Origin: a virus
DNA: 64,000 nucleotides
IMG/VR virus record: IMGVR_UViG_3300047444_000198
Coordinates: 1 to 64,000 of that record
Direction: 5' to 3' (one strand)
Part shown: positions 8,447-58,163 of the stretch, one piece after another
Position numbering within the stretch: position 1 is the stretch's first letter
Layout of the letters: every line of letters begins with the position of its first letter
The notes under the pieces: generated by a model
What the model was told of the DNA's origin: nothing
The model's database searches: none
Seen by the model: the letters and a program-made list of their open reading frames with translations, nothing else
Position numbers and translations under genes: made by a program

Positions 8447-9107
8447 AGGGGATCACGTGCCAGTTGCTCGGCGGGTAGAGATCCGGCTGCGTCACCTGCG
8501 TGTCCACCGTGGCCTTGCCCGTCAGCCAGGTACGGGTGGTCCACGCGTCCACCAGGAGCGGGTCCTCCCACTGCTTGGTCTGGAGATCCCAGAGGTAGTG
8601 CCCGGGCCAGATCGTGCCCCCAGTGAGCGTGACCATGGTCCCCGGCCCCAGGTTGCTGAAGTCGTCCAGGAACTCGGTAGTGATGGTGAAGGTCATCACG
8701 TACCGGTACCCGGGCCACGTGGGTGGCCACCAGTAACCGTAGTAGTACCAACCCTCGGCGCGCACCTGAGACGTCCACTGGGTCATCACCCAGGTGAGCC
8801 CGAGAGTGTCGGTGGGCTTCACATCGGTCCAGCAGACGCCGTCGAAGTAGAACTGGAACTCAGCGGTGTCCCCGGCTACCCAGTGCAGGTCGTACTCATC
8901 CGGGGTCTGGCTGGTCGAGCCAGTGCTGGCAGCGTTTGTACCTGTTCCCGAACCATTACTACCACTGACACTGACACCGGGCAGGAACGTGCTCGGGGGC
9001 ACAAAGTCAGTGGCGTAGGGGCTGATCTCAGGACCCTCTCCCCAGATCTGCACGCTCTGGCTGATCGGGGAGGGCGTGTCATTGAAGGTCTGCTGCTGGC
9101 TCGGCAC
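8439..9107 (-). CDS. Putative BppU-like baseplate/fibre attachment protein
   Basis: DLHWVAGDT..F...YLWDLQ...TWLTGK pattern. Confidence 0.5.
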   Translation of the reverse strand: MPSQQQTFNDTPSPISQSVQIWGEGPEISPYATDFVPPSTFLPGVSVSGSNGSGTGTNAASTGSTSQTPDEYDLHWVAGDTAEFQFYFDGVCWTDVKPTDTLGLTWVMTQWTSQVRAEGWYYYGYWWPPTWPGYRYVMTFTITTEFLDDFSNLGPGTMVTLTGGTIWPGHYLWDLQTKQWEDPLLVDAWTTRTWLTGKATVDTQVTQPDLYPPSNWHVIPYA

Positions 9108-9115
9108 AGGTCACC

Positions 9116-10654
9116 TCACGTCTTGATGTACAGGTACATGCCCATGAAGGGAGGACGGATGTCGATCGGAACTCCTCCTCCCACCGTGTTCTCGGTGATG
9201 GGGTGCGAGTGGGGTGCACCACCGCTGTCGATGGTGACGGGGTGCGTGTGCGTAGCAGCAGGCGTGAGAACGTGATCGTGCTGTGAAGACGTCGGCATGA
9301 GTGAGATGTTGGTGACACCCTGACCGAGGATGTTGAGGTTCGCGCCAGTGCTCGGCGGCATGGTGATGTCCTGGTTACCCAGAGCGAACCCCTCGACACC
9401 TGTTCCTTGTGGCACCTTCGTGAGGTACGCAGTGTTGGGCGCTGTCGTCGGATGCGTGTGCCCCAGGTCCCTGACATCATGCACGTGCTGGCCGTCCGTC
9501 TGGGTGGAGTGCCCGTGGGCTCCTGCGGGCGCCGTCGAGGCCGTATGGATGTGGGCGCCACCGGCATCGGTCGTGGGGCTCGCCAGGTGGTGGTGCGGAG
9601 GCATGTTGTCCACGGTCAACGTCACCTGGCTCGACGCGTTGCCGTCCTTCACCCCCGGCGTACCCCAACCGAAGAAGCAGTTGGTAGCGTTCGGTAGCAC
9701 CATGTTGACCCCGGAACGCCACGACGGGAACATGTTCCAGAGCCCACCCGCCGCCGCCTGGGTGACCGTCTGGCCGTTCATGAGCAGCCAGCCCACGGGA
9801 GGCGTGGGCATCATGCCGGTCATCGTCATGCCGGTGGGGATGACGTTCGTGGACAACTGGGTCCACGCCCCCGCCTGGAAGACCCACACGGTACCAGTGG
9901 TGGTGTTCTTGTAGAGGTCTCCTGGTGACTCACTACCGGTAGGAGTGGGGTCGTAGAATCCATGACCGAAGTTGTGGGCGGTGATGTCCCCGCCGATGGT
10001 GACATTCCCCGTCGCGGTGAGGACGCTCACCAGGAGGTTGGCGACGTCGAGCGTGCTGGTCAGCTTGAGCTTGCCCGCCGCCGTGCGCTCCAGCGCAGTG
10101 TCGTTGAGCCACTGCATCTTGCCGTAGGGATCGATCGAGAAGAGATTCCGAAGCGCCTGCCCAGCCGTGGGGTCCTGGTTACTCAACAGCATCCCGCCGT
10201 TGAGGATGGCCGTGGCGAAGCGCTGCGGGATCATGATGCGCTTGTCGGTCACCTGCGCCTGCCCGGGCGGTGTGGACCCAGGCAGGATCAGGATCGAGGC
10301 GAAGATGCACACGGTGCCGTCGTAGTACGGGAAGACCGGGTTCGGGCTCGGGGTGCCACCGATGATGATGACGCCACCGGCCGAGTTACCAGCGATCAGG
10401 TCGAAGCGGGGATTGTTGGTGGAGACAGTCAGAGAGACCTGCCCGCTCCCCGTCGCGACCTGACCGTTGACCACCCACACGCCCTGCGCCACGTTGACCG
10501 TGGACGAGCCCGTGACCGCTACATCGCAGCCCGAGATCACGCCATAGCGCAGGTTGCCCAGGAGGTTGAAGTCCAGGGCATCAGGCTCGGCCATGTCGAG
10601 GTTGGCCCCGACATCAGGCGAGTTGAGGACGATGTACCCGGCCCGCGGCGGCAT
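9116..10654 (-). CDS. Tail fibre/collar-domain protein with HxH repeats
   Basis: Collar-like PTG..PPVGWLLMNGQ, then LTVDNMPPHHH, repeated GAHxH and a C-terminal RPPFMGMYLYIK. Confidence 0.75.
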   Translation of the reverse strand: MPPRAGYIVLNSPDVGANLDMAEPDALDFNLLGNLRYGVISGCDVAVTGSSTVNVAQGVWVVNGQVATGSGQVSLTVSTNNPRFDLIAGNSAGGVIIIGGTPSPNPVFPYYDGTVCIFASILILPGSTPPGQAQVTDKRIMIPQRFATAILNGGMLLSNQDPTAGQALRNLFSIDPYGKMQWLNDTALERTAAGKLKLTSTLDVANLLVSVLTATGNVTIGGDITAHNFGHGFYDPTPTGSESPGDLYKNTTTGTVWVFQAGAWTQLSTNVIPTGMTMTGMMPTPPVGWLLMNGQTVTQAAAGGLWNMFPSWRSGVNMVLPNATNCFFGWGTPGVKDGNASSQVTLTVDNMPPHHHLASPTTDAGGAHIHTASTAPAGAHGHSTQTDGQHVHDVRDLGHTHPTTAPNTAYLTKVPQGTGVEGFALGNQDITMPPSTGANLNILGQGVTNISLMPTSSQHDHVLTPAATHTHPVTIDSGGAPHSHPITENTVGGGVPIDIRPPFMGMYLYIKT

Positions 10655-10655
10655 G

Positions 10656-11219
10656 TCAGAGGAGAGCTTCCAGGTGAGGCAACAGCGTGGCCCGGTTCTT
10701 CCCGGCTACCTCAGCGTCGATCAGCGCCTGCACCTGATCGGGGTTGTTCTCAGCGAACTCGATGACCTCGGGCACCGTGTGGGCGCCAGGGTCGTAGGCC
10801 ACCTCCACGTCAGCCTGCTCACTGGGCGGCAGCGCTTCAGCCTGAACCTGGGCCTCAGGCTGCACCATCCGGGGCGTACCCGAGAACGGCTTGACCGTGG
10901 TGACGTAGGTACCGTTGGCCAGCGGTGGCGTCCCCGCACCAGACACGGTGCAGGTGATGGTCTGGTTGGTACCAGCCGCACCTGCCGGGAAGGTGACGAC
11001 CGTGGATGCCCCCGTCGTCGGGTTGCACACGCCCGAAGCACTGGCCGTCCAGGCGTAGTCGGCCGGGTTCGTGGTACCACGAGGCCCCGTGGTGGTCACG
11101 GTGTACTGCAAGCCGTTGTTGGCGTTCTGCTGGGCCTTGGCGCCCGCAGGCGAGGACTGAACGACTCCCGGAGAGTCGGTGTACATCGTGTTGGGACCGT
11201 GGACGGTCACCATGCTCAT
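10656..11219 (-). CDS. Putative head decoration/accessory protein
   Basis: Beta-rich N-terminus and C-terminal YDP..HTVPEVIEF...AE..GKNRATL helical motif; downstream of the capsid gene. Confidence 0.5.
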   Translation of the reverse strand: MSMVTVHGPNTMYTDSPGVVQSSPAGAKAQQNANNGLQYTVTTTGPRGTTNPADYAWTASASGVCNPTTGASTVVTFPAGAAGTNQTITCTVSGAGTPPLANGTYVTTVKPFSGTPRMVQPEAQVQAEALPPSEQADVEVAYDPGAHTVPEVIEFAENNPDQVQALIDAEVAGKNRATLLPHLEALL

Positions 11220-11223: not shown

Positions 11224-11628
11224 CTACCTCCGCGCCATGCGCTCGTTGTAGGGGAAGGGCTGCTCCATCAGGAAGTCGAGGCGCGCCAGTTCGTAGGCGA
11301 CAGCCTTCGGCACCTTGTAGCGCACACCAGCCTTGAAGGCCATGTGCACGATCGGCACACCGAGGGTCATGTCCTCGATGTCGGTGTGCGTGCGGATCAC
11401 CCAGACCGGAGAGTCTTCCTCCTGCTGCTCCTGGAGAGCCATCGGAAGCTCTTGGACCTCGTCCACCACATGCGGCGCACCGAAGAGCCCCGCCATCGTT
11501 GACACACCAGGGGTGACCTCGCCACCCTCTTCCGAGACCTCCACCGGCCGCATCTCACTGGCCGGAAGGTCCGGGTCGTGGATGTCAGTGTCAGTGGCTC
11601 CGGGAGCACGTCGTTGTTGGGCCATCAC
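11224..11628 (-). CDS. Hypothetical protein downstream of the capsid gene
   Basis: AGGAG SD; C-terminal FKAG..YKVP..VAYEL motif. Confidence 0.6.
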   Translation of the reverse strand: MMAQQRRAPGATDTDIHDPDLPASEMRPVEVSEEGGEVTPGVSTMAGLFGAPHVVDEVQELPMALQEQQEEDSPVWVIRTHTDIEDMTLGVPIVHMAFKAGVRYKVPKAVAYELARLDFLMEQPFPYNERMARR

Positions 11629-11701: not shown

Positions 11702-13009
11702 TCAGTTGGTCTGGATGCGGACGACGGCGGAATCGGTGATCGTGCCGAAGCCCCAGATCCCGTACCAGGCCAGTGCATGCTCACGGCCGAAGTCGAGCAC
11801 GCCGCCGTCCCGAAGCTCCACGGGGAGGCTGATGGCATGACCGAAGGCGTTGTCCCCGATCATCAACCCCTCGAAGATGTTGTCGGGGTTGGTGGTGGTA
11901 CCACCGCCAGGCCAGTACTCGCCCCATCCGGGCATCACGTTGGCGCCGGGACCGACTGACTCGTAGCCACCGGTCTGCGGCTGGGTGATGTCCGTGGTGG
12001 ACGACACTGTCGTGTCCGACGCGACGTCGGTACGCCAGTAGGCAGCCGCCACCGAGGGATCGAGCGCCAACGTGGGCGGCATCTGGCCAGCAGCCAGCGG
12101 AACACCGATCTGCGTGGTCTCGATGAAGACCACATCGTTCAGGCGCCCGATCTCGCCCAGCATGAAGTTGCCCGGGGCCGCGTACTTCGTGACCTCGATG
12201 AACTCCGGGGTGTCACGGAGACGACGGCTCTGGTGCGGGTGCACCAACATCACGTAGGTCTCCCCGAGGCGGGGGATGTTCTTCGACGCCATCATCTCGA
12301 CGGCGTCCTTCACCGTCGCCATGGTGAGGTAGAAGTACGGCGCACCCGTAGCGGCCACTGACACTGACGTGCCTACGGTGCCGGGGTTGTAGATGCCGTA
12401 GCCGACGTTGATGGCCGTGGTCGAGGTGTCGTAGCCGTACACCGCCGACGACGAGCGCTGGAGTGCCGTGCGGGCCTGCGTGTCGATGTACAGCGCCATG
12501 TTGCGCCCGAGGAGCCGCGAGGCCGAGGCCATCACGTCATCGAAGCTGGCGTTGAGCAGCAGTTCCGTCACCGAGACGGCAAAGCCCTGCTCAGCCACTT
12601 TTATTTGGTACTGCTGCGCGCTGAGAGCGTAGGTCCGCATGCGGACACCCTCGACCAGGGGACCGGCAGGGATCGGCAGGTTGTTGTAACGCATGAAGTT
12701 GACGGTCAGTCCAGGCATGATGCCCAGTTCCGTCTTCTTGACCGCGAACTGCTCGAATCTCAGGACCGGCATGGCCTGAAAGAGGATCTCCTTCGACCAG
12801 ATGACCTGGATCGCTGGACCCATCATGGACGAGGCCGTGGTGGGGGCGACGGAGTAGCCGCCACTCCCATCAGGACCAGCAGCCATGTTGTAGCCAGCGG
12901 CGTTGCCGTAGACGCTGTACTGGGCGCCGCCAGCGACTTGGTTGGTACCGGTGACCGCGGACCCGGTGGGGAACGGGCTACCGATCGGGGCTGGTGTTGC
13001 GTTGGCCAT
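11702..13009 (-). CDS. Major capsid protein (N4-gp56-like, HK97 fold)
   Basis: WSKEILFQAMPVLRFEQFA, PG.TVNFMRY, VHPHQ..LRD, GEIGRL..V.FIETT, DFGR...AWY; follows portal and scaffold. Confidence 0.9.
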   Translation of the reverse strand: MANATPAPIGSPFPTGSAVTGTNQVAGGAQYSVYGNAAGYNMAAGPDGSGGYSVAPTTASSMMGPAIQVIWSKEILFQAMPVLRFEQFAVKKTELGIMPGLTVNFMRYNNLPIPAGPLVEGVRMRTYALSAQQYQIKVAEQGFAVSVTELLLNASFDDVMASASRLLGRNMALYIDTQARTALQRSSSAVYGYDTSTTAINVGYGIYNPGTVGTSVSVAATGAPYFYLTMATVKDAVEMMASKNIPRLGETYVMLVHPHQSRRLRDTPEFIEVTKYAAPGNFMLGEIGRLNDVVFIETTQIGVPLAAGQMPPTLALDPSVAAAYWRTDVASDTTVSSTTDITQPQTGGYESVGPGANVMPGWGEYWPGGGTTTNPDNIFEGLMIGDNAFGHAISLPVELRDGGVLDFGREHALAWYGIWGFGTITDSAVVRIQTN

Positions 13010-13934: not shown

Positions 13935-15590
13935 TTACTGCTGGGTCGTGTCGTTCTGGTCGTAGTCCATGACCTGCGGCGGCATCACCTGGTAGGCCCG
14001 TTGCATCATCTCTTGAGCTAGTGCTGGGTCAACAGGGGCACCAGGCGCCATGCCACCATCCGGTAGCAGAATGGGCTGCCCATCGGGCGTCATGCCGGTC
14101 GAAGCCATCTGGAACTGCGACACCTGCAAGCGGATCAGGTCGAGAGCGCCCTGCTCCTTCAGGTCCTCCATCATCTCCTCGAAGATCTCTCGCAGCTTCT
14201 GATCGGGGTACTGCTCGCCCAGGTCACGCAGGGCGCCCTTGCGGGACTCCAGGCTCATCGCCATGAGGGCCTGGATCTCGTTGATCTTGAGCAGCCGGTC
14301 CATGGGCATGGGGTCCGGCCAGAAGATCTCGGTGCGGTAGGTGACCGGGTCGAAGGGGTCCAACTGCATCAGTTGGTCCGGGTCCGGGATCACCCCAGCT
14401 AGGGAGGGGTTGTACTGGAGGCTGTCGGGCTCGAACAGCGCGATGTACTTCAGGGCTAGCTCGTTGACCGTCTTGAAGCCCGACGTGTACTGCGTCCGCT
14501 TCTGGTGGTAGCGGTGCATCATCGACGCGTATTGCATCTGAAGCGCCACGCCCGAGGTGTTGCTAACTGGTGTCTGTTGACCCAACGCCCCCTCGGGGAC
14601 ACCGGTCATCTCGTGCATCGAGCGCTTGAGCAGTTCCATGTAGCCCAGCGGCCCCGCGAAGTTGGTGTCCAACTCCAGGTTCTCGATCTTGGCGTCCTTG
14701 TTCCCGATGGACCAGACCTTCTTCGGCCCCTTCTCCAGGTTCGACGCCTTGGCCCCGATGATCACCGTGACGGGGCTCGCGTGATAGTTGATCACGTCGG
14801 AGATGTTCGTGGCCCGCTCGTTGTACTCCCGGTTGATGGCGATGATGTCGTTGCAGTCACCGAGACCCCACGGTGATGACGCAACAGGCACGTTCGGGAT
14901 GTGCACGATGGGGATGGTGCCCAGGCTGTTCTCACGGCGGTCGATCAACTCGTCGTTGACGTACTCCTCGATCGACTCGTCGGTGACAAGCTCGACGTAG
15001 GTGTACACCTGTCGGGTGCCGTCCTGAGCCGTGCCCCAGAACTTGTACTTGAGCTTGAAGCGCTGGATGCGGGACCGATCATGGGCGTGGAACTCCGGGA
15101 AGCAGAACGCCGGGTTCAACGGCAGGATGCGGACCTTGCCCGGGTGGATCATCCCTGTTGGGTCAACCCAAGCCTCTTCGTAGGCCACCTTGATGAACAC
15201 GTCACCGGAAACGCCACCCAACTGGCCGATCTCCCACAGGAGCTTGGCTTTGTTGTTGTCGATCTCCCACACCCGCTTGAGCAGCGGCGGGATGACCAGG
15301 CTGGTGGCCTCAGGGGAGTGGAACTCCACACCACGGCCGAAGGTGAAGTTGTTGATGTAGTCGCTGAACGCCTTGATGTAGTTGAAGGTGAGTTGGGGCT
15401 CACCAATCTCCCGCTTGTACGCCCAGTGATGGCCCAGGTACCAGGCCCAGTTCATCGCATAACGATTTAGTCGAGGGCCGTGGACCTCGAACTCCTCGTC
15501 TGCTAACTCAACAAGGCCCAGCGGGCTGATGGCGATGGTCAGGTCACTGGCTGCGGCCCGGTAGCTCGGCGGGTAGAAGTTGACTGACAT
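13935..15590 (-). CDS. Portal protein (SPP1 gp6-like)
   Basis: 551 aa; N.LGTIPIVHIPN...WGLGD and SNTSGVAL motifs; position in the head module. Confidence 0.9.
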   Translation of the reverse strand: MSVNFYPPSYRAAASDLTIAISPLGLVELADEEFEVHGPRLNRYAMNWAWYLGHHWAYKREIGEPQLTFNYIKAFSDYINNFTFGRGVEFHSPEATSLVIPPLLKRVWEIDNNKAKLLWEIGQLGGVSGDVFIKVAYEEAWVDPTGMIHPGKVRILPLNPAFCFPEFHAHDRSRIQRFKLKYKFWGTAQDGTRQVYTYVELVTDESIEEYVNDELIDRRENSLGTIPIVHIPNVPVASSPWGLGDCNDIIAINREYNERATNISDVINYHASPVTVIIGAKASNLEKGPKKVWSIGNKDAKIENLELDTNFAGPLGYMELLKRSMHEMTGVPEGALGQQTPVSNTSGVALQMQYASMMHRYHQKRTQYTSGFKTVNELALKYIALFEPDSLQYNPSLAGVIPDPDQLMQLDPFDPVTYRTEIFWPDPMPMDRLLKINEIQALMAMSLESRKGALRDLGEQYPDQKLREIFEEMMEDLKEQGALDLIRLQVSQFQMASTGMTPDGQPILLPDGGMAPGAPVDPALAQEMMQRAYQVMPPQVMDYDQNDTTQQ

Positions 15591-16939: not shown

Positions 16940-17250
16940 CAGCTACCTCCCGCAGTGGGGCTCGCCCGTCGCCGCTTGTTGTTGACGTAGCTCAGCGCTG
17001 ACGGCGCCAGGCCGGGAGGCATGTTGATGCCCATCATGTCGTCAGCCCGCTTCATGACCTCCGGCTTCATCTTGGCCCAGAGGAGTCGGTAGTTCTCCGG
17101 CTTCTCTTTGTCCTTCTTCAGCCGGATGTCATGGGGCGGGATGACGATGGGTCGGCCTGGTGAGAGGCCACCAAAGACGCGTTCGTGCACCGTTTGGGTG
17201 CTCGGCAGACGGGTTCCTACCGTCTGCATGCGCTGCGGTGGCCAAGGCAT
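16939..17250 (-). CDS. Hypothetical protein
   Basis: ATG 17250 (MPWPPQ) overlaps the upstream TGA. Confidence 0.55.
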   Translation of the reverse strand: MPWPPQRMQTVGTRLPSTQTVHERVFGGLSPGRPIVIPPHDIRLKKDKEKPENYRLLWAKMKPEVMKRADDMMGINMPPGLAPSALSYVNNKRRRASPTAGGS

Positions 17251-17627
17251 CAGTCGTTGACGACGGCGCGGTTGGGGCGCCGCTTGAGACCTTCGCTCTC
17301 CCGCTCGAAGCCGTAGCCGGTGCCGAAGGCCTGTGAGCCGTGGACGAACTCGCCCAGCATGCTCGGTGCCTCGATCCAGGTGGACGAGCCCATGTGGGCG
17401 CGCTCCCGCATCGTCTCGGCCTGGCCCTTCCAGCACGTGACCGGCCGCTCGTTGGCGGTGTCGGCGTAGGCGCCACGGCGGAAGTCGTTGGGCACGTCAG
17501 TGTCAGTGGCGATTCCCTCCTCGAAACGAAGGGGACCACGACGCCGATCGTTGCTGGCGATGTCGTGTTCGTACTGGGCTCCTCGGAACTTCTCGGGGCC
17601 GAGGGACGGGACCGGTGCGATGCCCAT
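17250..17627 (-). CDS. Conserved actinophage late protein
   Basis: GGAGG SD; RRGPLRFEEGIATDTDVP and RERAHMGSSTWIEAP motifs. Confidence 0.65.
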   Translation of the reverse strand: MGIAPVPSLGPEKFRGAQYEHDIASNDRRRGPLRFEEGIATDTDVPNDFRRGAYADTANERPVTCWKGQAETMRERAHMGSSTWIEAPSMLGEFVHGSQAFGTGYGFERESEGLKRRPNRAVVND

Positions 17628-45363: not shown

Positions 45364-45368
45364 TCTTG

Positions 45369-45423: not shown

Positions 45424-45759
45424 GTCAGTGTCAGTGCTCAGGCCAGCACGAAGAACGCCAGCGTGACCACCACCATGGCCGCAAACAACACCTTGCCAGC
45501 CAGGCGATGGCGTACTGACCAGGGGTAGCGCTTGCGGTAAGCACGGCGCTTCACTCGGTACCGGCGCTTGACGTCACGGTCCCAGGCTCGGCGCATCTTG
45601 CGCTCACCACGCCGTGTCTCGACCACGTGCATCCGGCCGTAGACGTCTACAGGCACCTTGATCGAGCAGAGGGGCACGTCGCGAGAGGACCCAGCGGTGC
45701 CGTTGACGGGAGGAGGAGGACCAGTCAACGGCACCGATGAGGGTGGGGGAGGAGGCAAG

Positions 45760-46341: not shown

Positions 46342-46391
46342 GGTTCGGCACCCTATCAGGCTCCAAGATTCATAGGGATAGGCCGTTTGCC

Positions 46392-47485: not shown

Positions 47486-47489
47486 GCAG

Positions 47490-47879: not shown

Positions 47880-47886
47880 CGGTTCC

Positions 47887-47931
47887 AGTGTAGCGGCTTT
47901 GGCACCCTCTACACATGGGCCAAACGGCTCA
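47887..47931 (-). promoter_or_regulatory. Promoter cassette P16
   Basis: TGAGCC-GTTT-GGCCCA, TACACT, 7 nt, ATG; palindrome displaced to about 47962. Confidence 0.7.
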
Positions 47932-48104
47932 TTCGACTGTCAGTGTCAGTGGGCGAATCGTGATGACTCACCATGACAGGAACGTGTGTTCTTACCCCTC
48001 CTTGGGGGTGCTGCGTGGTGCAGGCTCGGGCGGCGCAGCATCGAGCACAGCATCGAGCAGTTCGCCGGGGTTGGGCAGGGGCTTGACGTCGAGCGGTTCG
48101 TCAT

Positions 48105-49384: not shown

Positions 49385-51077
49385 TTACCCCTCAGCGACC
49401 AGCCGTTCAGCCTCCACGAACAGATCCAGGTCGAAGATGCGTACCAGGTGGAAGGCCCGACACAGGTCGCCGCCGTCCTCGTCAACGATGATCCGGTTGT
49501 GATCGCCCTTGACCATGGCATCGATGGCGTCGCGGCAGTCCGGGATGGCGTTGGGGCACTCCATCGCCCACGTCATCCACCACGTGAGCGCATGCTCGGT
49601 GCCCTTGAACAGGATCATCTCGGGCAGGAGTTGAGCCAGCGGGTGTTCAGTCATCCGTCCAGCCTCTTGCACGTGGCGCATTCCGGAGCATCTGATGCGG
49701 TGCCCTTCCACGTGGAGTACGTGATGAGCACGCCACACAGGGTCAGTTCAGCACCACCAGGGATACCACGGACGTGGTGAGCGGCGACGTGCTGCTCAGT
49801 TGCCAGGCCCTCGGCATTGACCGAGACGTCGGGGTAGTTGACCGTAGTCATGACGTCAGGTAGTTCACGACGATGTTGCGGGCGTCGGGCCACTCGATCT
49901 CGACCTGCTCGGCGTAGACAGCAGCCGTGATCTCATCGGAGAAGGGCACCGAGAAGTGCTCAGGCCCAGCGAAGTGCGGACCATCGATGGAGAAGGTGAC
50001 GGAGTGGGTGGGAGGCATGGTCTCAGTCTACTCCCTCTGTTGAGTCATCACCATGGGTCATTCGGCCCTCCGTGGTCTGCGCGCCATACCTCGTAACGAG
50101 CCTTGACGATCACCAGGACTGTCAGTGTCAGTGCACTCAACAGCGCGATGCGCTTCATATCGTGCCCCTGAGCATCACACTCTTGACCGTGACCGTTATC
50201 TCGGGACTCAGATCTTCGGCCTCAGCAGCGATGGCCTCGGCCAGAGTGTTGATGTTGAGCGTCGGCTCGTCAGGATTGGGCGGCTCGTGATGCACCACCC
50301 GCAGCGTCACCTCGTACTCGTAATCGTGCGCCTTCATGCGTACGGGCCGCTCGGATTGTACGGGCGCACCGTCACGTCACCAGGCTTGTCCCACACCACG
50401 GTCCCTGATTCCAGGTCCAGGATGTACGGGGCATTGTCCCACGTGGGCGACTCCATCCAGTCGGTGAGCCGCAGAGCATCGTCAGGCGCGAAGCCCTGAC
50501 GCTCCATGGTGCGGCGAAGGGACGCCCGCCGCCATGCCTTACGAAACGTCTGACGCTTGCCCATGCTCTGTCCCTCTCGTCTCTTTGACCCACCCTGCCC
50601 ACCAGGACAGAGCATCGTACAGGTTCGGTACCTCGGGGAAAGTCTCGGGGTGACCGAACCAGGTGGAGCGGACCACGCTATTGCCGTGCACGTCGTAGCC
50701 CTTGAAGATGGCGACGTAGTCACTGGTCGTGACCGTCTTGGCCCGGTGGAACAGCGACCGGCGCACGTCCACCAGCCACGCGTACTCGTAGTCGAAGTCA
50801 GCGAACGCCTGTACCCACATCCACGTGGTGTCGTCCACTCGGGTGCCCTCGGCCGGTTGCACGGCAGCCAGCTTGTTCAGGATGCCCGCTAGCTCGTCGT
50901 TCACCAGATCGGTGCCGTGGATGGCCCGACGTTGGGCCGCAGTAGCAGTCATCACCGCCCCAATCTAAAGACGGTGATGACGAGAGCGAGCAGAGAGACC
51001 GGACGGACCCGCCGCTGCTCACGGTACCGGAGCGCTCGGGGCTGCTTCCGCAGCCGCATGGGAGGCATGGGGAGCAT
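49385..51077 (-). other. Small hypothetical CDSs (49385-49654, 49651-49851, 49848-50018, 50155-50337, 50334-50564, 50539-50952)
   Basis: Mostly coupled start/stop overlaps; 49848-50018 starts leaderless. Confidence 0.55.
50025..50068 (-). promoter_or_regulatory. Promoter cassette P17
   Basis: Dyad, GATGACTCAAC, TAGACT, 6 nt, ATG. Confidence 0.8.
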
Positions 51078-51880
51078 CAGACGGCCACCTTCCCCTTGTT
51101 GGCGTTGATGGACGCCATGAGGTCGGACAGGAGGTCAGGACCGGACGGCTGTGCGTCAAGGACCACCGCAGGCTCGACACCCGCCGCCTTGTTGTCCACG
51201 TAGGTCTGGATGGCCTGCGACGTGGTATCGACCAGTACCGGGGCGCTCACGCCCACGCTCTCGATCAGCGCCAGAGCAAGGTCGCTCTCCTGCTTGCTCA
51301 CGGTCGCCGTGGGCAGATCGATGGGCTGGCGGATGGCGTCGGCCGTGACCACGTACCGGAGGTCCCCGGCGCAGTCCAGGATGGCGTACCGGGCCGGTCC
51401 CCGCATGGCGAGCTTCACCAGCGCGACCACCTTGCGCTCCTTCATGGCAGCGAGCAACAGCGTCAGCGCCTTGACACCGGACGGGTCCGACTTGCCCTTC
51501 ACCCGGCGTGGCCTGATCTGGTACAGGCCTTCCGTGAGGTACTGGCCCAGGTTGCGGGTCTGGATGAACGTCTCGATGACGGCGATGCCCTTCGGCATGG
51601 TTGCGTCAACGATCTCGTCGTCGTCCAGCGTCACCCACGCACCGGACGTTGCCTCAGCACGGCGCACCACGTCAGCGCGATCGATGATGACACCGGTCGT
51701 CTTGTTGGTGAGCGCACGGCCCACCGGCTGCCAGGCGCCCTCAGCGTCCTTGGTGAACTCCTTGCGGGCGATCCGCACTTCCTCGGTGCCGGTGTAGGCC
51801 GAGACCGGAATGTTGAGCAGACCCCAGGAGATGGTGAAGGAGGTTGTGGCCCGGTTGGGAGTGGGGGCGATTGCTTTCAT
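51077..51880 (-). CDS. ku: Ku-like DNA end-binding protein
   Basis: ISWGLLNIPVSAYT.TEE N-terminal motif; LL.AM......ALVKLAMR; DL...LMAS C-terminus. Confidence 0.88.
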   Translation of the reverse strand: MKAIAPTPNRATTSFTISWGLLNIPVSAYTGTEEVRIARKEFTKDAEGAWQPVGRALTNKTTGVIIDRADVVRRAEATSGAWVTLDDDEIVDATMPKGIAVIETFIQTRNLGQYLTEGLYQIRPRRVKGKSDPSGVKALTLLLAAMKERKVVALVKLAMRGPARYAILDCAGDLRYVVTADAIRQPIDLPTATVSKQESDLALALIESVGVSAPVLVDTTSQAIQTYVDNKAAGVEPAVVLDAQPSGPDLLSDLMASINANKGKVAV

Positions 51881-51886
51881 GTCTCT

Positions 51887-51930
51887 ATTCTACTCTTTCC
51901 GTTCCTTGTACGTATGGGCCGTTCGTACCA
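51887..51930 (-). promoter_or_regulatory. Promoter cassette P18 (Ku)
   Basis: TGGTAC-GAAC-GGCCCA, TAGAAT, 6 nt, ATG; no palindrome. Confidence 0.7.
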
Positions 51931-51944
51931 TTTGGTACCGCCCC

Positions 51945-52991
51945 TCACCCGAATGGTGAGGGGCTGTCGGCGAAGTTGTCGCCAGAGCCAGTGAGCGGGT
52001 GCCGGTTGTCGGCAGCGTTCGCGATCAGGCCCTTGAACGACCGGGACTCGACAATCTCATCGAACACCAGTTTCTCGTCGGCCGTGAACATGGAGCGCAG
52101 GACGAACAGCGCCATGTCAACGCCATCCTCGATCACGTCTGAGCAGACCCGCATGAGCGCGCTGGTACCAACTGGCGTCCGGATATGGCCGGTGGCCCTC
52201 GCCTGGCGCAGAGCGTCACCCAGCGTGCGAACCGCATCGTTAGGGATCAGCCGGTGCTCGACCGTGGGATCGTAGGCCCATTCCAGGTGCCGGAACCGGT
52301 TGGCGAAGGCCTCATTCAGCGCACCCGCGCCCCGGTAGTTGGGGTTCATGGTGCCGACGATCCACAGGTCGGGACTGATGTGCACGGTCTCAGGCATGAA
52401 GCCGTCGCCGGGGACCTTGACGGCCTTGGCCCGGTTGGTGAACGAACGCCGCCAGTCGGCCATGGGATGCAGGGAGGACGTGACCCGCTCCGGCATCATG
52501 TTCACTTCGTCCAGGTAGAAGATGCCGCCGATCCTGGCAGCCATGTCAGCGATGCCGGGGAGCCAGACGATCTGCTCCTGGCCGGTCTCGGGATTGGTCC
52601 AGGCCGTGGGTTGACCGAACATGTCGAAGTCGGTGATGCCGTTGCTGGCCGAGAGGGTGAACACCGGGACCGGGAGCACCTTGCCATCACGGTTCAGGCC
52701 CATGGCCTCCCCGATGTGGATGGCGAGGACGTTGACGAGCATCGTCTTGCCACCCTGCGTGTCGCCCACCAGCAGGACGTTCTCCCGGCTGGCCCACTTC
52801 GCCAACAGGTACTCGACGTCAGTCTTGCCATTGGGCAGCTTGCGACTCACGTACTCCTGCACCAGCGCCGGATCGGGCCGGAACATGTCGAGACGAGGGT
52901 CATCGATGGTCAGCGCGACCGATTCCTCGTGCGTCACCGTCAGGTGGCGGGGAGCGGTGCGCTTCATCACTTTGGTGGGCTGCTCGGTCAC
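51945..52991 (-). CDS. MoxR/CobS-like AAA+ ATPase
   Basis: Walker A GDTQGGKT, Walker B FYLDEVN, TMNPNYRG..LNEAFANRF. Confidence 0.9.
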   Translation of the reverse strand: MTEQPTKVMKRTAPRHLTVTHEESVALTIDDPRLDMFRPDPALVQEYVSRKLPNGKTDVEYLLAKWASRENVLLVGDTQGGKTMLVNVLAIHIGEAMGLNRDGKVLPVPVFTLSASNGITDFDMFGQPTAWTNPETGQEQIVWLPGIADMAARIGGIFYLDEVNMMPERVTSSLHPMADWRRSFTNRAKAVKVPGDGFMPETVHISPDLWIVGTMNPNYRGAGALNEAFANRFRHLEWAYDPTVEHRLIPNDAVRTLGDALRQARATGHIRTPVGTSALMRVCSDVIEDGVDMALFVLRSMFTADEKLVFDEIVESRSFKGLIANAADNRHPLTGSGDNFADSPSPFG

Positions 52992-53021
52992 TGTCGTCCT
53001 CTCGTCTCAGGTTCGATGCCC

Positions 53022-53164
53022 ATTCTAGCAAGGTCCCGTACCAGGTGCATGGGCCGAAAGCACCATTCTGTTGACTCACTACTCTCTCACGTGTTGACTC
53101 ACCCACCACCAGAGCCGAAATAGGTCTCCCGGCCCATGTAGTGGGTACGGTACCCTGCTAGACT
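53022..53164. promoter_or_regulatory. Divergent promoter pair P19/P20 (AAA and vWA)
   Basis: GGCCCAT...TAGAAT on minus and GGCCCAT...TAGACT, 7 nt, ATG on plus; two GTTGACTCAC sites between them (53070, 53093). Confidence 0.75.
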
Positions 53165-53171
53165 GGTGCTC

Positions 53172-55160
53172 ATGACCGAACCAGACGCCACCCGCACGCT
53201 GCGGGACGTGAGGCGGCAGCAGGCCAGTGAGCGCCGCCGCCTGAAAGAACAGCAGCAGCGGACCCGAGAGCGGATGGATGCCGTCTCGGACAAGATGAGC
53301 ACTGAACAGGCTGAGCGCATCCGCCGCCACAACGCCGTGGTAACGGGCATGGTGCCCCGCATCACCGGGGCCGTGGACTCGTGGGCAGGCAAGCGCGTGC
53401 CCATGAACGTCCAGCACCCGGCCAGCCGGTTCTTCGCCGCTACGGACTTTGAGCGCATCACGCTCATGATCCCCGAGACCGAGACCATCGACCTGGACTT
53501 TGCGGCTGACCTGCGTGGACTGGCGTATCACGAGGCCGGACACATCTTGAAGTCGGTCCCCTTCGCCACGCTGGTCAACGCCGTCATGCCTCTCGATGAG
53601 AACGTGGCGAGCCACAGCAACCGCATGCGGAGCCTTTCCAAGATGGTCGATCTGGACCAGGACAAGCTCCACCAGGCGTGGAACGTGCTGGAAGATCAGC
53701 GCATGGAGTCGGCCATGGTGCGGGAGAGCACCAACCTCGGCCGGTACTACAACGTGATCGTCTTGGAGCACGTGCTGCACGGCGGGGTGTCTGACATTGC
53801 CTACATGTGGGTCTACGGGCGCAAGCACGTGGATGCCGACGTGCGGGCGGCGGCTCGCGCCGCCATGGTCGTCCAAGAGGGTGAGGCAACGGTCCAAGCC
53901 GCTGAGCGCCTGATCGACACGTACAAGCAGTCCAACGACCCGCTCGTCATGTGGGAGTCGGTCGTCAAGTTCGGTCAACTCATCGGGCACTGCTCGAATG
54001 GCGGCGACCTGGGCAACGGGGCCATGGATGACCATGAGGAAGCCCGCAACCCCGAACCCAAGCCGTTCGACCTTGATGAGTCAACGGAGCCGTCACCAGA
54101 GCCAGACAGTGAAGGCGAGTGCGACGGCGACGGCGGTGACGGTGAAGATGAGGAAGGCACCGGAGCGCCCGGTGGCGACGGTGACGACAACGACAGTGAG
54201 GATGACGCTGAGGGTCAAGAGGGTGGTGACACCGCTGACCGCCAGGCTCACGGCGATCCCGATGCCTTCCAAAGCGACACCGGAGCGTCCAAGAGCGTCA
54301 ACGATGCCGATTGGAGCCGCCGCCTGGTGACTGACGCTCTCAACAAGGCGAGGGAGTCGCGCAACCGGGACGGGAACGTGCTGGGTGACGTCAAGGCGTA
54401 CAACCAAGCCGTGTCCGAGGGCCGGGGGAAACTCCCGGTGGCACGCATCCCCTACACCGTAGAGCCTGACGCCATGGTGACCAGCCAGGCCGTCAAGCTG
54501 AATCAGGCTCTCCGCAACCTCATGGAGCAGGCGCGTGCTGAGTCATCGCCCACGTGGCAGACGCAGCAGCGGGCGGGCGTGCTCGACGTGCGGGCGTACA
54601 TCACCCGCCAGCCTGGCGAGATGGAGTTCTACAAGCGCTACGCCGAGGGCGGCGACATGCACCTGCCGAACATGGCGGTGAGCCTGTTGCTTGACGGGTC
54701 ATCCTCCATGGATCACCAGGCCCAGCGCCTAGCCATCGCCGCGTTCGGCGTGAAGTCGGCCTGTGACGTGGTGGGCGTGCCCTGCACCGTCACGGTCTAC
54801 GACACCGATGCGTACCTGTTGTGGGATGACGAGGATCGTCCGATGGACGTGCCGTACAACATCCTCCCCAGCGGTGGTACCGATCCGAAGCGGGTGCTCG
54901 ACCTGCTCGACATGCAGAAGTGCGACAAGGCCAACCACCTGGTCATCATCATGACTGACGGTGCCTGGTCACACCAGTGGCAGACGTCGCTCTCGCTGGC
55001 GCACTACGCCGCCGCCGACCGGGACATGGTCCTGTTCTACCTGGACTGTGACCCGGCGTACGGGCCGCAGGGCACCGACACGTGCTCGCTGGTGCAGCGC
55101 ATCGATGACCTACAGGAGATTCCCCGGTTCCTGATGCGCTACCTCGTACGGGCGATGTAA
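53172..55160 (+). CDS. CobT-like protein: HExxH N-domain, acidic linker and vWA domain
   Basis: YHEAGH, NVLEDQRME, D/E/G linker, MIDAS LLDGSSSM...GGT...MTDG; leaderless ATG 53172. Confidence 0.85.
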   Translation: MTEPDATRTLRDVRRQQASERRRLKEQQQRTRERMDAVSDKMSTEQAERIRRHNAVVTGMVPRITGAVDSWAGKRVPMNVQHPASRFFAATDFERITLMIPETETIDLDFAADLRGLAYHEAGHILKSVPFATLVNAVMPLDENVASHSNRMRSLSKMVDLDQDKLHQAWNVLEDQRMESAMVRESTNLGRYYNVIVLEHVLHGGVSDIAYMWVYGRKHVDADVRAAARAAMVVQEGEATVQAAERLIDTYKQSNDPLVMWESVVKFGQLIGHCSNGGDLGNGAMDDHEEARNPEPKPFDLDESTEPSPEPDSEGECDGDGGDGEDEEGTGAPGGDGDDNDSEDDAEGQEGGDTADRQAHGDPDAFQSDTGASKSVNDADWSRRLVTDALNKARESRNRDGNVLGDVKAYNQAVSEGRGKLPVARIPYTVEPDAMVTSQAVKLNQALRNLMEQARAESSPTWQTQQRAGVLDVRAYITRQPGEMEFYKRYAEGGDMHLPNMAVSLLLDGSSSMDHQAQRLAIAAFGVKSACDVVGVPCTVTVYDTDAYLLWDDEDRPMDVPYNILPSGGTDPKRVLDLLDMQKCDKANHLVIIMTDGAWSHQWQTSLSLAHYAAADRDMVLFYLDCDPAYGPQGTDTCSLVQRIDDLQEIPRFLMRYLVRAM

Positions 55161-55197
55161 TCGTGACTCAACACCCACTGACACTGACAGGCAGGCC

Positions 55198-55611
55198 ATG
55201 AACAGCGACACGGCAGGACTCATCCTCAACGTCTACCTCATCATGCGGCGGCACCAACGGGTACTAGCCGCTACCGGGGACAACCGTCTGGCGAACAAGG
55301 CCGCATGGCACACCTACGGGCTGATCTGGCTAGCCGGGTGGGCGTTCATCGCCCCTCTCGGCTGCCTGTTCCTGGCCCTGTTCTCACCGGGCTTCCTGGT
55401 GGCCGCAGGCATCCTCGCGCTGCTCATCCCGGTCTGGTTCTACGCCTGGTCGGCTGATCGTCGCTGGGAGGCCACGCTGAGTGCTCAGGCCATCGAACCG
55501 CCGCCGATCCCTGAGCAGTACCCCATGAGTGCCCCTGAGCGCACCATCACCCAGCCGGTGCTCACGGCGTTCTACCGGCCACCGGCCAAGCAGATCAGGT
55601 CGGCTCGATGA
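55198..55611 (+). CDS. Membrane protein
   Basis: Two hydrophobic segments. Confidence 0.6.
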   Translation: MNSDTAGLILNVYLIMRRHQRVLAATGDNRLANKAAWHTYGLIWLAGWAFIAPLGCLFLALFSPGFLVAAGILALLIPVWFYAWSADRRWEATLSAQAIEPPPIPEQYPMSAPERTITQPVLTAFYRPPAKQIRSAR

Positions 55612-55661
55612 GCCGAATGGCTCTGTCGTGACTCACCAGGAGCCGTGTATACTGAGTCAAC
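55609..55661 (+). promoter_or_regulatory. Promoter cassette P21
   Basis: TGAGCC-GAAT-GGCTCT, GTGACTCACC, TATACT, and a second TGAGTCAAC over the predicted start site. Confidence 0.75.
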
Positions 55662-55697
55662 ACAGAACCTCTAGGACAGGATGGAGCACAAGACGAG

Positions 55698-56111
55698 ATG
55701 GCAACGATTCTCAGATCGTATGACTGGTCACAGGTCAGCCGAGCCAACAAGCGGGCCAGGAGCCGGAGCTACCCCTGGGATGACTGGTTCGATGGCCGCA
55801 TCTGGCAGCTAGAGCCGAGGGTGGACTTCGATGGTCCTGCCGTCAGCTTGGAGCGGGTCATCCGGACATCGGCCAACCGTCGCGGTATCAAGGTCCGCAT
55901 CCGCATCGATGGCGACGTCGTCGTCGTGCAGCGCCATGAGGACGGCGATCCCTTCCGGACGATCACCAAGTCCCCGAGCTTGAAGTCGATCAAGGCGGCG
56001 AAGGAGGCCGAGACGAACGGCCACAAGCCCGAGCCGGTCAAGGTCTCGGCCACGAAGAAGGTCGCTCCCGCCACGCCTCGTAAGCGCGTGTTGAAGCGCG
56101 TGAGCGTCTAG
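55698..56111 (+). CDS. Putative DNA-binding protein with basic tail
   Basis: YPWDDWFDG..W.L...DF motif; K/R-rich C-terminus. Confidence 0.6.
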   Translation: MATILRSYDWSQVSRANKRARSRSYPWDDWFDGRIWQLEPRVDFDGPAVSLERVIRTSANRRGIKVRIRIDGDVVVVQRHEDGDPFRTITKSPSLKSIKAAKEAETNGHKPEPVKVSATKKVAPATPRKRVLKRVSV

Positions 56112-56146
56112 TACCACCCAGCCTCCCCTAGTAAGAGGGGGCGTGT

Positions 56147-56257
56147 AGAAGCCAGGAACCCGCAACCGCATTTGACCCGAAGCACCGCCCACCGGACTCA
56201 CAGAGTCCAGGGCACCGCTGGCAGGCACAACCGGGCGCGTAAGTGTTCCTGGCTTCT
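56147..56257. ncRNA. Candidate structured RNA
   Basis: 13-bp perfect closing stem AGAAGCCAGGAAC/GTTCCTGGCTTCT; internal GGACTC-aca-GAGTCC hairpin; intergenic. Confidence 0.45.
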
Positions 56258-56393
56258 TGCGTTGTCAGTGTCAGTGCGTGCTATGGTCCCGTACCAGGTG
56301 CAAGGGCTGTCCGATCCCTCCACCAAGGGTCGTGCTCCCCAGCTAAGGACTACCGCCAGTCCGAGACGGCCCTTGCACCTGCAAGAGTGGAGC

Positions 56394-56453
56394 GTTGAGT
56401 CAACAAGATGGGCCGAATGGCCCATGTCAGGGTGGTACCACCGGGTGTATACT
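56394..56453 (+). promoter_or_regulatory. Promoter cassette P22 (DUF3987)
   Basis: GTTGAGTCAAC, TGGGCC-GAAT-GGCCCA, TATACT. Confidence 0.75.
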
Positions 56454-56498
56454 GGTCCTTGAACCTGAGGAAACCATCCCCACTGAAAGGGCCAGCAC

Positions 56499-57842
56499 GT
56501 GATTACCGACCACCTTCCCGATTGGATGAGCACCTACGTCAGCGAGACCGCTGCGGAGTTGCAAGTCCCGATCGATGCCGTTGCTCTGCTGAGCCTCGGC
56601 GCTCTGTCCGCTGCCGTGAACGGCGGCGCCACTTCGCTCCCGGTCGATTCCTGGGCCGAGCCGTGCGTGCTCTACACCGTCGCCCTGCTGGCGTCGGGCG
56701 AGGGCAAGTCCCCGGCCTTCACGAAGCTCTTGGAGCCTGTCGTGCGGGCGTTCGAGGAAGTCACTGGCGTGCACCAGGCCACCGATGCCAAGACGCAGAC
56801 GATCCGCAACCGGGTCAATCGCAAGCACATCAAGAAGGTCGAGAGCGATGCGCTGCGGGCCGTGGCCAAGGGTTCGATGAGCCTGGAAGAGGCCATCGGG
56901 GAAATCGCCGCCGCCGAGCGGGCCGTCGCCCTGTTCAACAACACCAACATCCCGCTAAAGGTCGTCACCGACGTGACGCCCGCTGGTCTGCTCGATGCCT
57001 TGCAGGACAACAACGGTCGCGTTGTGATCGCCAGCCCGGAGGCCGAGAGCCTGATGAGCTTCCGGGGAGGGTCCAAGGAGGCCATCCTTAAGGGCTTCGA
57101 TGGCGAGACCATGACACAGGGCCGTCGTGGTACCGGTGAGGTCACCATCGCCCGCCCGACCATCACGGCGATGCTGGCGATGCAGCCAGCCATCCTCGGG
57201 TCGCTGGGCGCCGACATGGTCAACCGTGGCGTGATGCCCCGGTTCCTGATCAGCTACCCGGAGTCCATGGTGGGCCACCGTGAGGCTCGCACCGTCCTGG
57301 TCTCGCCTGAGGCTGAGGCTGAGTACGAGGCCGAGATGACCAGGATCGTGACCGCCTACAGCGAGCCACGGCCGAAGCTCATCACCTGGGACCCCGCTGC
57401 CAAGCGTGAGATCGGCACCTGGCGGGTCGAGATCGAGCCGTTGCTGGCGCCGAACGGTCTCTTGGCGTCCATCGCCGCATGGGGTTCCAAGGTGCGTGGG
57501 GCGCACTTCGTTCGCCTGGCGGCGCTCCTGGGGATCGCCAACGGCCGGGACTTCGTCAACGTGGACGATTGCGTCCAGGCCAAGGCCATCCTGCGCTCGC
57601 TCATGATCGACGCGAAGCGGGCGTTCGGGGCCATGGGGGCGTCGTTCTCCGACGATGACGTGGTGCACCTGATGAGCATCGTGGAGCGCCTTCCGGAGCG
57701 CACGTTTGCCAAGCGCATGATCATGCGCCGGTCCAACAGGCTTAAGACGCCCGACCGGGCGGGCCAGGCTCTCGACAAGGCCGTGGAGGAAGGTCTGCTG
57801 ACCTACGACGAGGGCACCAAACAGTGGACCTACGTCGAGTAG
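56499..57842 (+). CDS. DUF3987/YfjI-like P-loop protein (helicase-like)
   Basis: LY.VAL.ASGEGKSP, DVTP.GL, QP..L, GVMPRFL, RLAALL. Confidence 0.85.
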   Translation: MITDHLPDWMSTYVSETAAELQVPIDAVALLSLGALSAAVNGGATSLPVDSWAEPCVLYTVALLASGEGKSPAFTKLLEPVVRAFEEVTGVHQATDAKTQTIRNRVNRKHIKKVESDALRAVAKGSMSLEEAIGEIAAAERAVALFNNTNIPLKVVTDVTPAGLLDALQDNNGRVVIASPEAESLMSFRGGSKEAILKGFDGETMTQGRRGTGEVTIARPTITAMLAMQPAILGSLGADMVNRGVMPRFLISYPESMVGHREARTVLVSPEAEAEYEAEMTRIVTAYSEPRPKLITWDPAAKREIGTWRVEIEPLLAPNGLLASIAAWGSKVRGAHFVRLAALLGIANGRDFVNVDDCVQAKAILRSLMIDAKRAFGAMGASFSDDDVVHLMSIVERLPERTFAKRMIMRRSNRLKTPDRAGQALDKAVEEGLLTYDEGTKQWTYVE

Positions 57843-57848
57843 ATCCGA

Positions 57849-57874
57849 AGGCCCGGGGCAAACGTCCCGGGCCT
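57849..57874. terminator. Stem-loop between convergent genes
   Basis: AGGCCCGGG-gcaaacgt-CCCGGGCCT. Confidence 0.55.
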
Positions 57875-57887
57875 GCTGCTGTCAGTG

Positions 57888-58163
57888 TCAGTGCCGGTGC
57901 CGACTGGTGTGACACCCACGGCACAGCGGTACCACGTCGTTCTCGTGGCCAGCGTCGTAGCCACGGTGGTGGTGCCACTGATCAGCAGGTTCCCAGCAGT
58001 CAACACAAGCGTGTAGCCGGACCGGAGGCCGACTCCGAGCTACACGCTTGTGGATGGCGTTCCGACGCCTGCGTTCTTGCTCGCTACCGGGGCCAGGCTC
58101 CTGCTCAGGCCAGTCCTGCCGACCCGTCCAAGAGGGGTCCAGAGGGTGCTCGACTACAGACAC
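57888..58163 (-). CDS. HNH-endonuclease-like zinc protein
   Basis: CVDC...WHHH.GY.....VVPLCRGCH..RH. Confidence 0.7.
   Translation of the reverse strand: MSVVEHPLDPSWTGRQDWPEQEPGPGSEQERRRRNAIHKRVARSRPPVRLHACVDCWEPADQWHHHRGYDAGHENDVVPLCRGCHTSRHRH

Follow-up and report, generated by a model that had tools for sequence, protein, structure and literature searches.

We describe here a 64,000-base stretch of phage DNA (the window, bases 1-64000 of the 76,395-bp IMG/VR contig IMGVR_UViG_3300047444_000198, whose completeness is estimated at 79%) and a 13-bp word, CACTGACACTGAC, which is repeated along its length. The contig has a GC content of about 64%, and a gene set of 138 genes was obtained with a codon-usage model trained on its own long open reading frames. 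According to these gene calls, 91% of the DNA is coding and about 9% intergenic. Genes lie mostly on the minus strand, with plus-strand blocks at 24.5-31.4 kb and 53.2-57.8 kb. The word occurs in the window in 22 exact copies, 9 on the plus and 13 on the minus strand, against an expectation of 0.02 (mean of 100 dinucleotide-preserving shuffles, the largest value being 1); a first-pass annotation of this DNA had counted 22 copies, far above chance, and the same coordinates were recovered. The copies are the following.

8963-8975, plus strand: antisense within the gene 8439-9107 (minus), reads VSVS
11584-11596, minus strand: sense, at about codons 10-14 of the gene 11224-11625 (minus), about 50 nucleotides (nt) past the hairpin behind the capsid gene
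12356-12368, plus strand: antisense within the major capsid gene, SVSV in a variable loop
17496-17508, minus strand: sense, in the gene 17250-17627 (minus), an ancestral ATDTD re-coded by two synonymous ACC>ACT changes
21632-21644, minus strand: sense, in the gene 21542-21763 (minus), on the downstream flank of a WhiB gene
22204-22216, plus strand: antisense, in the gene 22001-22258 (minus), with an exact homologous site in the relative G001 (29641)
26156-26168, plus strand: sense, 4 nt past the stop of the gene 25420-26151 (plus)
28826-28838, plus strand: provides the TGA stop of the gene 28559-28831 (plus)
31147-31159, plus strand: 1 nt past a stop and 15 nt ahead of the gene 31175-31390 (plus)
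31393-31405, minus strand: in a convergent gap, 2 nt past the stop of 31175-31390 (plus), co-oriented with the minus-strand unit
35453-35465, minus strand: 11 nt past the helicase stop, followed 18 nt on by a 10-bp GC hairpin (35409-35434); G001 counterpart at 11138
40551-40563, minus strand: sense, makes up the 3' side of the stem at the base of a 151-nt structured element
40669-40681, plus strand: antisense, 3 nt past the stop of 40685-40984 (minus), 5' arm of the base stem of the 151-nt element
43779-43791, minus strand: 2 nt past a stop, ahead of the promoter cassette that follows
44631-44643, minus strand: sense, in the gene 44574-44918 (minus), with a third hexamer in a soil variant
45424-45436, minus strand: 1 nt past a stop, with a 54-nt tRNA-like element (45370-45423) directly after
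46575-46587, minus strand: sense, in the gene 46392-47051 (minus), TDTD
47939-47951, minus strand: 59 nt upstream of the winged-helix gene 47490-47879 (minus), with a G001 site upstream of the homologous gene
50121-50133, minus strand: 21 nt past a stop, ahead of the promoter cassette that follows
55176-55188, plus strand: 15 nt past the stop of a gene for a 664-amino-acid protein, with a G001 site 17 nt past the homologous stop (110218)
56264-56276, minus strand: antisense, in the 387-nt gap ahead of the DUF3987 primase-helicase gene
57881-57893, minus strand: in a convergent gap, followed 6 nt on by a 9-bp GC hairpin (57849-57874); same junction in G001 (107421)

Four further copies lie beyond the window and form two tight inverted pairs (66211+/66228- and 70538+/70565-), so that the whole 76.4-kb contig holds 26 exact copies. 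The set of copies is all-or-none: near-matches in the window consist of one copy with a single mismatch (63277) and three with two mismatches, the latter being overlaps of exact copies shifted by 6 nt. The word is invariably preceded by G or C and followed by A or G, and in 70 aligned sites from four phages no conservation was observed beyond these two positions (-1 and +1). Half-sites are not enriched alone, since 44 of the 46 CACTGACA octamers sit within full sites. From the rule on flanking bases and the lack of half-site enrichment, the unit is defined as 15 bp, S-CAYTGACAYTGAC-R, a tandem of two head-to-tail hexamers. The number of hexamers varies in the population, because a variant from a soil metagenome carries a third one at 44628 as a 6-nt in-frame insertion within the gene.

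Concerning their placement, 17 of the 26 copies of the contig are intergenic or overlap a stop codon, and across the four phages 44 of 70 sites are intergenic against about 9% expected (p ~1e-26); convergent gaps, few in number, hold 11 of the 70. Copies at 28826, 31147, 43779, 45424, 66228, 26156, 35453, 55176 and 50121 are found at 0-21 nt past a stop codon. In the tandem contexts of this phage and of G001 the upstream stop is closer than the next start in 15 of 19 cases, the distance to the next start ranging from 1 to 564 nt. The first-pass annotation had located copies between genes, at gene ends, at convergence points (31393 and 57881) and inside genes, all of which was borne out. It had also stated that two copies supply a TGA stop: this is correct for 28829-28831, which is the stop of the gene 28559-28831, while 57888-57890 ends merely an open reading frame of 91 amino acids that the gene caller rejected.

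The copies inside genes allow the level at which selection works to be evaluated. A codon-preserving shuffle (1000 rounds), which had been proposed as a check in the first-pass annotation, gives an expectation of 0.16 in-gene copies (0.13 sense and 0.03 antisense), whereas 9 are observed (6 sense and 3 antisense), and none of the rounds gave more than 3. The peptides read at these copies are TDTD in six cases, VSVS in two and SVSV in the capsid gene, in line with the TDTD and VSVS coding previously suggested, except that the capsid frame reads SVSV. The proteome contains six TDTD peptides, every one encoded as ACT-GAC-ACT-GAC and preceded by a codon ending in C, and T-ending codons such as ACT are rare in this phage. 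The peptide EEGIATDTDVP of the gene 17250-17627 is conserved out to the Streptomyces phage Alone3 and is written with other codons in every relative; in G001 it reads ACC-GAC-ACC-GAC, and two synonymous C>T changes gave the exact site present here. For the capsid gene and the other in-gene copies, homologues carry different residues at equal length. In-gene copies therefore arose by substitution and not by insertion, since homologues have the same length and different residues or codons. Selection acts here on nucleotides rather than on protein.

It could be argued that the word is a mobile or recombining sequence mark (a miniature element, a joint between cassettes or a product of slippage) that spread with no functional selection. 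Inverted copies do flank genes (31147/31393 around 31175-31390 and 55176/56264 around two genes), the number of hexamers at 44628 is polymorphic and the early region is highly mosaic. However, the in-gene sites come from point substitutions at existing codons, the flanks share one base per side and nothing more, and no recombinase or transposase was found; moreover, 15% of sites fall within 30 nt of the boundaries of homology blocks with G001, the same as for random intergenic points. This makes such a spread very improbable.

The copies tend to be oriented along local transcription, a bias seen in the early regions and not in the late ones. In the window, 15 are clearly co-oriented, two lie in convergent gaps (31393 and 57881), both oriented with the minus-strand unit, and five are opposite (8963, 12356, 22204, 40669 and 56264), which matches the previous estimate of about 17 of 22 on the locally transcribed strand, with the difference that 56264, then called ambiguous, is here counted as opposite. 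Under a tentative division of the genome into early and late regions by gene content (the early ones here being 24.5-57.8 kb), the early copies of this phage are 12 co-oriented to 2 opposite, plus the 2 in convergent gaps, and those of G001 are 13 to 1, so that the pooled ratio is 25:3 (one-sided p ~1e-5). The late copies are 5 to 5 in this phage and 10 to 6 in G001. Over four phages the ratio is 38:17 (p=0.003), and for in-gene sites 19:7. Coding constraint cannot account for this polarity, because one sense frame of the word has two TGA stops and the antisense frames have none. In G001 plus and minus sites stand at 11:6 in the left half of the genome and at 8:5 in its right half, and orientation flips with the gene blocks; it is thus set by gene blocks and not by genome halves. 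A Chi-like or end-facing signal would not be expected to behave in this way, and this candidate was rejected.

The same data bear on the possibility of a non-polar DNA site that serves the organisation, self-marking, replication or packaging of the genome, for which the orientation bias would be a side effect. Late-gene copies, pooled from this phage and G001, have no orientation preference (15:11), the sites are dispersed with a roughly even spacing of about 1 per 3 kb, and the phages bearing the motif share a replication and repair block (Ku, AAA_5, the 664-amino-acid protein and DUF3987) that is missing from motif-free relatives. On the other hand, the early 25:3 bias is hard to obtain as a side effect, coding constraint favouring antisense copies if anything; there is no clustering at the terminase gene or at the genome ends, and orientation in G001 goes by gene strand and not by genome half. 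ParB_N and AAA_31 (ParA-type) domains were not found in this contig, in the complete G001 or in G012, and a parS or centromere function was rejected on this ground and because of the dispersed, asymmetric nature of the sites. Neither partition nor packaging, as put forward in the first-pass annotation, finds support, and a non-polar site appears unlikely to us.

The early region has an organization of its own. About 20 units between 37000 and 56500 (for example 38422-38492, 40985-41122 and 42434-48481) carry a GGGCCGAATGGCCC-type hairpin, a palindromic TGTTGA(C/G)TCAACA box and a TAGACT-like -10 element a few bases ahead of the start codon. Several relations between the 13-mer and these units were tried and rejected. 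The spacing between the word and the palindromic box is not fixed, with offsets from -23 to +88; a sigma-70 -35 role fails since TANNNT occurs at no preferred offset from the 70 aligned sites and nothing is conserved past +1; a start-associated sequence is excluded by start distances that are not fixed and by the preceding stop being nearer. No consensus promoter overlaps a 13-mer, and the divergent promoter gaps 24475-24550 and 52992-53165 contain no copy. With no fixed box spacing, no -10 offset and no promoter overlap, the 13-mer is neither part of the promoter nor a start-associated sequence. The palindromic box co-evolves too, because the G001 version reads TGTTGTCACAACA, and it probably has its own dimeric binder, for which the winged-helix protein 47490-47879 is a candidate. 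In addition, two octamers are strongly over-represented window-wide, partly within the promoter units: GGTACCAC occurs 30 times and CCTTGGAG 24 times.

To see how far the system extends, we considered the many portal relatives present in IMG/VR. Relatives with 70-87% portal identity carry CAYTGACAYTGAC. G001, a contig of 118,220 bp with direct terminal repeats, rated 100% complete and with 79% portal identity, has 30 such sites, namely 16 CAT/CAC, 10 CAT/CAT, 2 CAC/CAC and 2 CAC/CAT; G004 has five, CAC/CAC; three genomes with 70% portal identity (G011-G013) have 6-9 apiece, mostly CAT/CAT, and two contigs (L354 and L367) have 3-4 within 5-7 kb. In G006 (portal identity 70%), G007, G008, G014, G015 and Alone3 there are zero sites and no other multi-copy word. 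The preference for the C or T variant thus differs by phage, the behaviour that would be expected of a site co-evolving with its reader. A third of the G001 sites (10 of 30) read GACAT, which weakens the earlier claim that GACAC, the core recognised by WhiA, is the core of this word. Among the matches listed, a 14-mer scan of IMG/VR gave almost only single chance hits, and a scan of bacterial genomes for the inverted pair returned only unrelated 20-bp palindromes (e.g. in Nocardia) and no prophage relative.

At the nucleotide level 40% of the contig can be aligned to G001, with about 70% identity, and several sites keep their place. The pair 22204/29641 (here and in G001, respectively) is exact, within DPVSVSARL here and DPVSVNARL in G001; 35453/11138 lies directly past the helicase stop and ahead of a terminator hairpin; 55176/110218 is found 15 and 17 nt past the stop of the gene for the 664-amino-acid protein; 57881/107421 lies where the TGT-like and DUF3987 units converge; 47939/116693 is upstream of the winged-helix gene in both; further shared places are 66211/98525 and 70565/96233. 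The site at 11584 has a same-place site in L116, an 87% relative. Positional conservation in related phages, on which the first-pass annotation had made its proposal depend, is therefore found in both G001 and L116. Lineage-specific sites also exist, e.g. 17496. Since some places are shared and others are lineage-specific, the site system both persists and turns over.

The genes common to the motif-bearing genomes only include Ku (51077-51880), an AAA_5 ATPase, the 664-amino-acid protein, the gene 55698-56111 and the DUF3987 primase-helicase, and there is no obvious sequence-specific binder among them. The block 51077-57842, present in motif-bearing relatives only, comprises Ku, the AAA_5 (MoxR/CobS-like) ATPase, the 664-amino-acid protein with no assigned function, a basic protein of 137 amino acids and the DUF3987 primase-helicase, and it seems to stand in for the DnaB/primase/PolI module that Alone3-type relatives have.

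We also evaluated RNA structure around the sites. A strong hairpin follows the site at 0-24 nt in this phage (35453 and 57881), in G001 (11138, 17832, 65968 and 116693) and in G012 (9340 and 20542), and the stem of two of these hairpins uses the last bases of the word; the reverse order, with the hairpin before the site, was seen twice (11584 and, in G001, 66270). Single sites form no stem-loop of their own. Tight inverted pairs do fold (-23.2 and -34.6 kcal/mol), and in six phages 7 of 7 such pairs are sense-first, with arms always of the same Y variant. The pair 40669/40551 closes a 151-nt structure (40540-40690, minus strand; -89 kcal/mol, z=-6) at the 3' end of the gene 40685-40984, which is absent at the homologous place in G001. 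The tRNA-like element of 54 nt (45370-45423, minus strand), consisting of an acceptor stem and a T arm, starts directly past the site 45424; its match to mascRNA is weak (E=0.3, below threshold). If RNase P cut at this element, the 13-mer would be left at the 3' end of the mRNA.

These observations on hairpins, inverted pairs, the 151-nt structure and the tRNA-like element keep alive an explanation at the RNA level, in which the sense transcript would carry CAYUGACAYUGAC in 3' untranslated parts and in some coding sequences. There the word would govern how units are terminated, processed or kept stable at their 3' ends, being read by a phage RNA-binding protein or through pairing with antisense copies, and inverted copies within one transcript would be terminator or processing stems. 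Polarity extends to in-gene sites, the variable positions are C or T only, both of which can pair with the fixed G in RNA, and matching is all-or-none, as base pairing predicts. It should be noted, however, that one site in every three to four lies antisense to the genes around it, that the conserved antisense place 22204/29641 has no explanation under this mechanism unless it is a pairing partner, that most single sites have no nearby hairpin and that no clear RNA-binding protein was recognised. The putative ones are 40011-40220 (minus strand), weakly similar to a phage ProQ C-terminal region (E=0.0016), and 22514-22936 (minus strand), with a KTSC domain (E=4e-11). On balance an RNA element is possible and somewhat less probable than a polar site on DNA. 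Its most ambitious form, a genome-wide 3'-end code in which one 13-nt word controls about 25-30 units via an RNA-binding factor or via antisense copies in other (late) transcripts, seems rather doubtful; we know of no phage system of this kind.

Which factor could recognise the word on DNA, and in which type of phage, was evaluated from the gene content. Neither tyrosine nor serine recombinases (PF00589, PF00239) were found in this contig, the complete G001 or G012, and the clade looks lytic from its gene content. Two WhiB-like proteins, of a family that the first-pass annotation had named for binding assays, are present (21760-22041 and 33328-33600) and suggest an actinobacterial host. The genes of interest are listed below.

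33617-34888, minus strand: cluster of three ribbon-helix-helix (RHH) genes, candidate binders
21760-22041, minus strand: WhiB-family gene, bracketed by the sites 21632 and 22204
47490-47879, minus strand: ArsR/MarR-like winged-helix protein, second candidate binder of the 13-mer

Four RHH proteins had been reported in the first-pass annotation; the family is represented, with three members, of which 33617-33871 is above the Pfam cut-off and 34368-34586 and 34583-34888 are weak. In G001, RHH-like genes occur in the same operon, behind the junction of helicase, site and terminator. Between the helicase and the RHH cluster lies a 588-nt non-coding stretch (34889-35476) with four perfect hairpins of 9-12 bp, whose counterpart at the same place in G001 is a gap of 589 nt; it may serve as an origin or a regulatory leader, or contain an RNA gene. 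Concerning the winged-helix protein, which is likely a dimer, the palindromic promoter box appears a better match than the 13-mer. Its structure model has low confidence (predicted local distance difference test score of 54) and is suited only to naming the fold, and a profile search retrieved relatives in the G001 group only.

Taken together, enrichment, selection on nucleotides, placement between genes and at the ends of units, polarity in early regions, and conservation with co-evolution in relatives support a selected cis site. The explanation we favour, with a probability of about 0.4, is that the 15-bp unit is the site of a phage-encoded factor acting polarly on transcription, most likely bound as duplex DNA, a stoperator-like system in a lytic clade. 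A sequence-specific factor encoded by this phage clade would recognise the 15-bp unit on double-stranded DNA; the sites stand at the 3' ends of small units, past the stop and ahead of the next promoter or terminator hairpin, pointing along the direction in which RNA polymerase travels. Given this placement and polarity, we propose that the bound protein would stop or insulate read-through between units by blocking elongation, and that the binder might be one of the RHH proteins, which typically read short tandem repeats. The role would belong to the lytic programme, such as the shut-off of early genes or the insulation of the approximately 20 tandem early promoters, and not to prophage silencing. 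The opposite-strand site that keeps its place (22204/29641) and the palindromic double sites would fit recognition of duplex DNA.

Several observations weigh against this explanation. There is no true operator, since no copy overlaps a recognisable promoter. No repressor of the L5 gp71 type was detected by sequence-level searches with tblastn and phmmer against this contig, G001 and G012 (best E=0.04), and no cognate binding protein was identified for the 13-mer. The clade looks lytic, so prophage silencing cannot be the purpose of the site. Polarity is absent from the pooled late regions of this phage and G001. Where a strong hairpin is close by, the site stands immediately 5' of it in nearly all cases (7 to 2); a roadblock at that point would leave the hairpin with nothing to do, and an RNA element suits this order better. 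For DNA-binding dimers that cooperate, a repeat every 6 bp is uncommon. Finally, exactness in 26 of 26 copies of the contig is stricter than in most protein sites, an objection tempered by the 17-bp repeats of cluster O phages, which are equally invariant (PMC4351075). The first-pass annotation had proposed a stoperator-like site: the selected, asymmetric, multi-copy, intergenic, co-oriented and place-conserved character of the word agrees with it, while a gp71-like repressor, an integrase, Par proteins and a promoter-overlapping copy, which would complete the likeness, were not found. An RNA element is a close rival to the polar DNA site, and both a non-polar site and mobile spread come behind these two.

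The main genes identified through PHROG matches are the following.

11702-13009: major capsid protein
13935-15590: portal
17674-19272: large terminase
35477-37021: helicase
58188-59546, minus strand: TGT/DpdA-like protein (PHROG queuine tRNA-ribosyltransferase, E=5e-27)

An endolysin gene and a tail fibre gene are located on the same contig outside the window. The portal is 59% identical to that of the Streptomyces phages Alone3, LuckySocke, GiJojo and BRock, all of about 115 kb, and no near-identical DNA was found among isolated phages; Alone3 has a tail sheath, about 35 tRNAs and no annotated integrase. The nearest isolates are tRNA-rich phages of about 115 kb that possess a tail sheath and lack an annotated integrase. 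The TGT/DpdA-like gene hints at a 7-deazaguanine modification of DNA; a link with the motif was rejected, because motif-free relatives have the gene too. A Pfam scan of about 80 proteins left the majority without a known family, protein-atlas look-ups for the genes 55698-56111 and 40685-40984 gave nothing informative, and the sole match above the gathering score in an Rfam scan was tRNA-Pro.

Polar multi-copy sites of the stoperator type have so far been tied to temperate phages and immunity repressors. That the same architecture occurs, clearly selected at the nucleotide level, in uncultivated soil phages that are large and apparently lytic points to a broader role, and direction-dependent control of elongation or of 3' ends by one word may be a general way in which phages partition dense genomes. 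The system is compact, its parts being a 15-bp site that can stand in two orientations and the few candidate binders named above; if the proposal is true, a portable orientation-dependent transcription stop for high-GC actinobacteria could be possible.

The word can be compared with four known systems. As in the start-associated sequences of cluster K phages, a 13-bp word is repeated ahead of many genes. Those sequences stand at a fixed few bases upstream of start codons (cf. PMC4351075), whereas the present motif is 1-564 nt from the next start and nearer to the preceding stop. Cluster O phages, such as Corndog, encode Ku, as does the present phage. Their 17-bp repeats, of function unknown, occur in more than 30 invariant copies in apparently non-temperate phages, and like the present sites they lie for about a third in genes and for the rest in intergenic DNA, more densely in the non-structural region; however, cluster O repeats are built with dyad symmetry from 7-bp inverted arms and have no orientation relative to transcription, while the present motif is a direct repeat and polar (PMC4351075). 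RHH dimers of the omega/ParB type from pSM19035 bind one per 7-bp repeat, contiguously and in direct or inverted order (PMC9499535). Short contiguous repeats, together with the three RHH proteins encoded here, recall this system, from which the present motif differs in having a period of 6 bp and not 7, two units per site, and a dispersed distribution rather than arrays at promoters or centromeres. Stoperators are defined as asymmetric 13-mers that occupy short intergenic spaces, number over 20 per genome and are oriented according to transcription (PMC9283540). The likeness to those of cluster A phages (L5, Bxb1, TipsytheTRex) and of the Streptomyces phage R4 and its relatives covers the asymmetric 13-bp word, the more than 20 copies, the intergenic position by stop or start codons, the orientation that tracks transcription and the sequence that varies between related phages (PMC9283540; PMC10276819). 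Stoperator phages are temperate and have a gp71-type immunity repressor, with a helix-turn-helix and a stoperator domain, and a true operator at the early promoter, none of which was found here. Unlike stoperators, the present motif is a tandem hexamer, is polar only in early regions and also forms tight inverted pairs.

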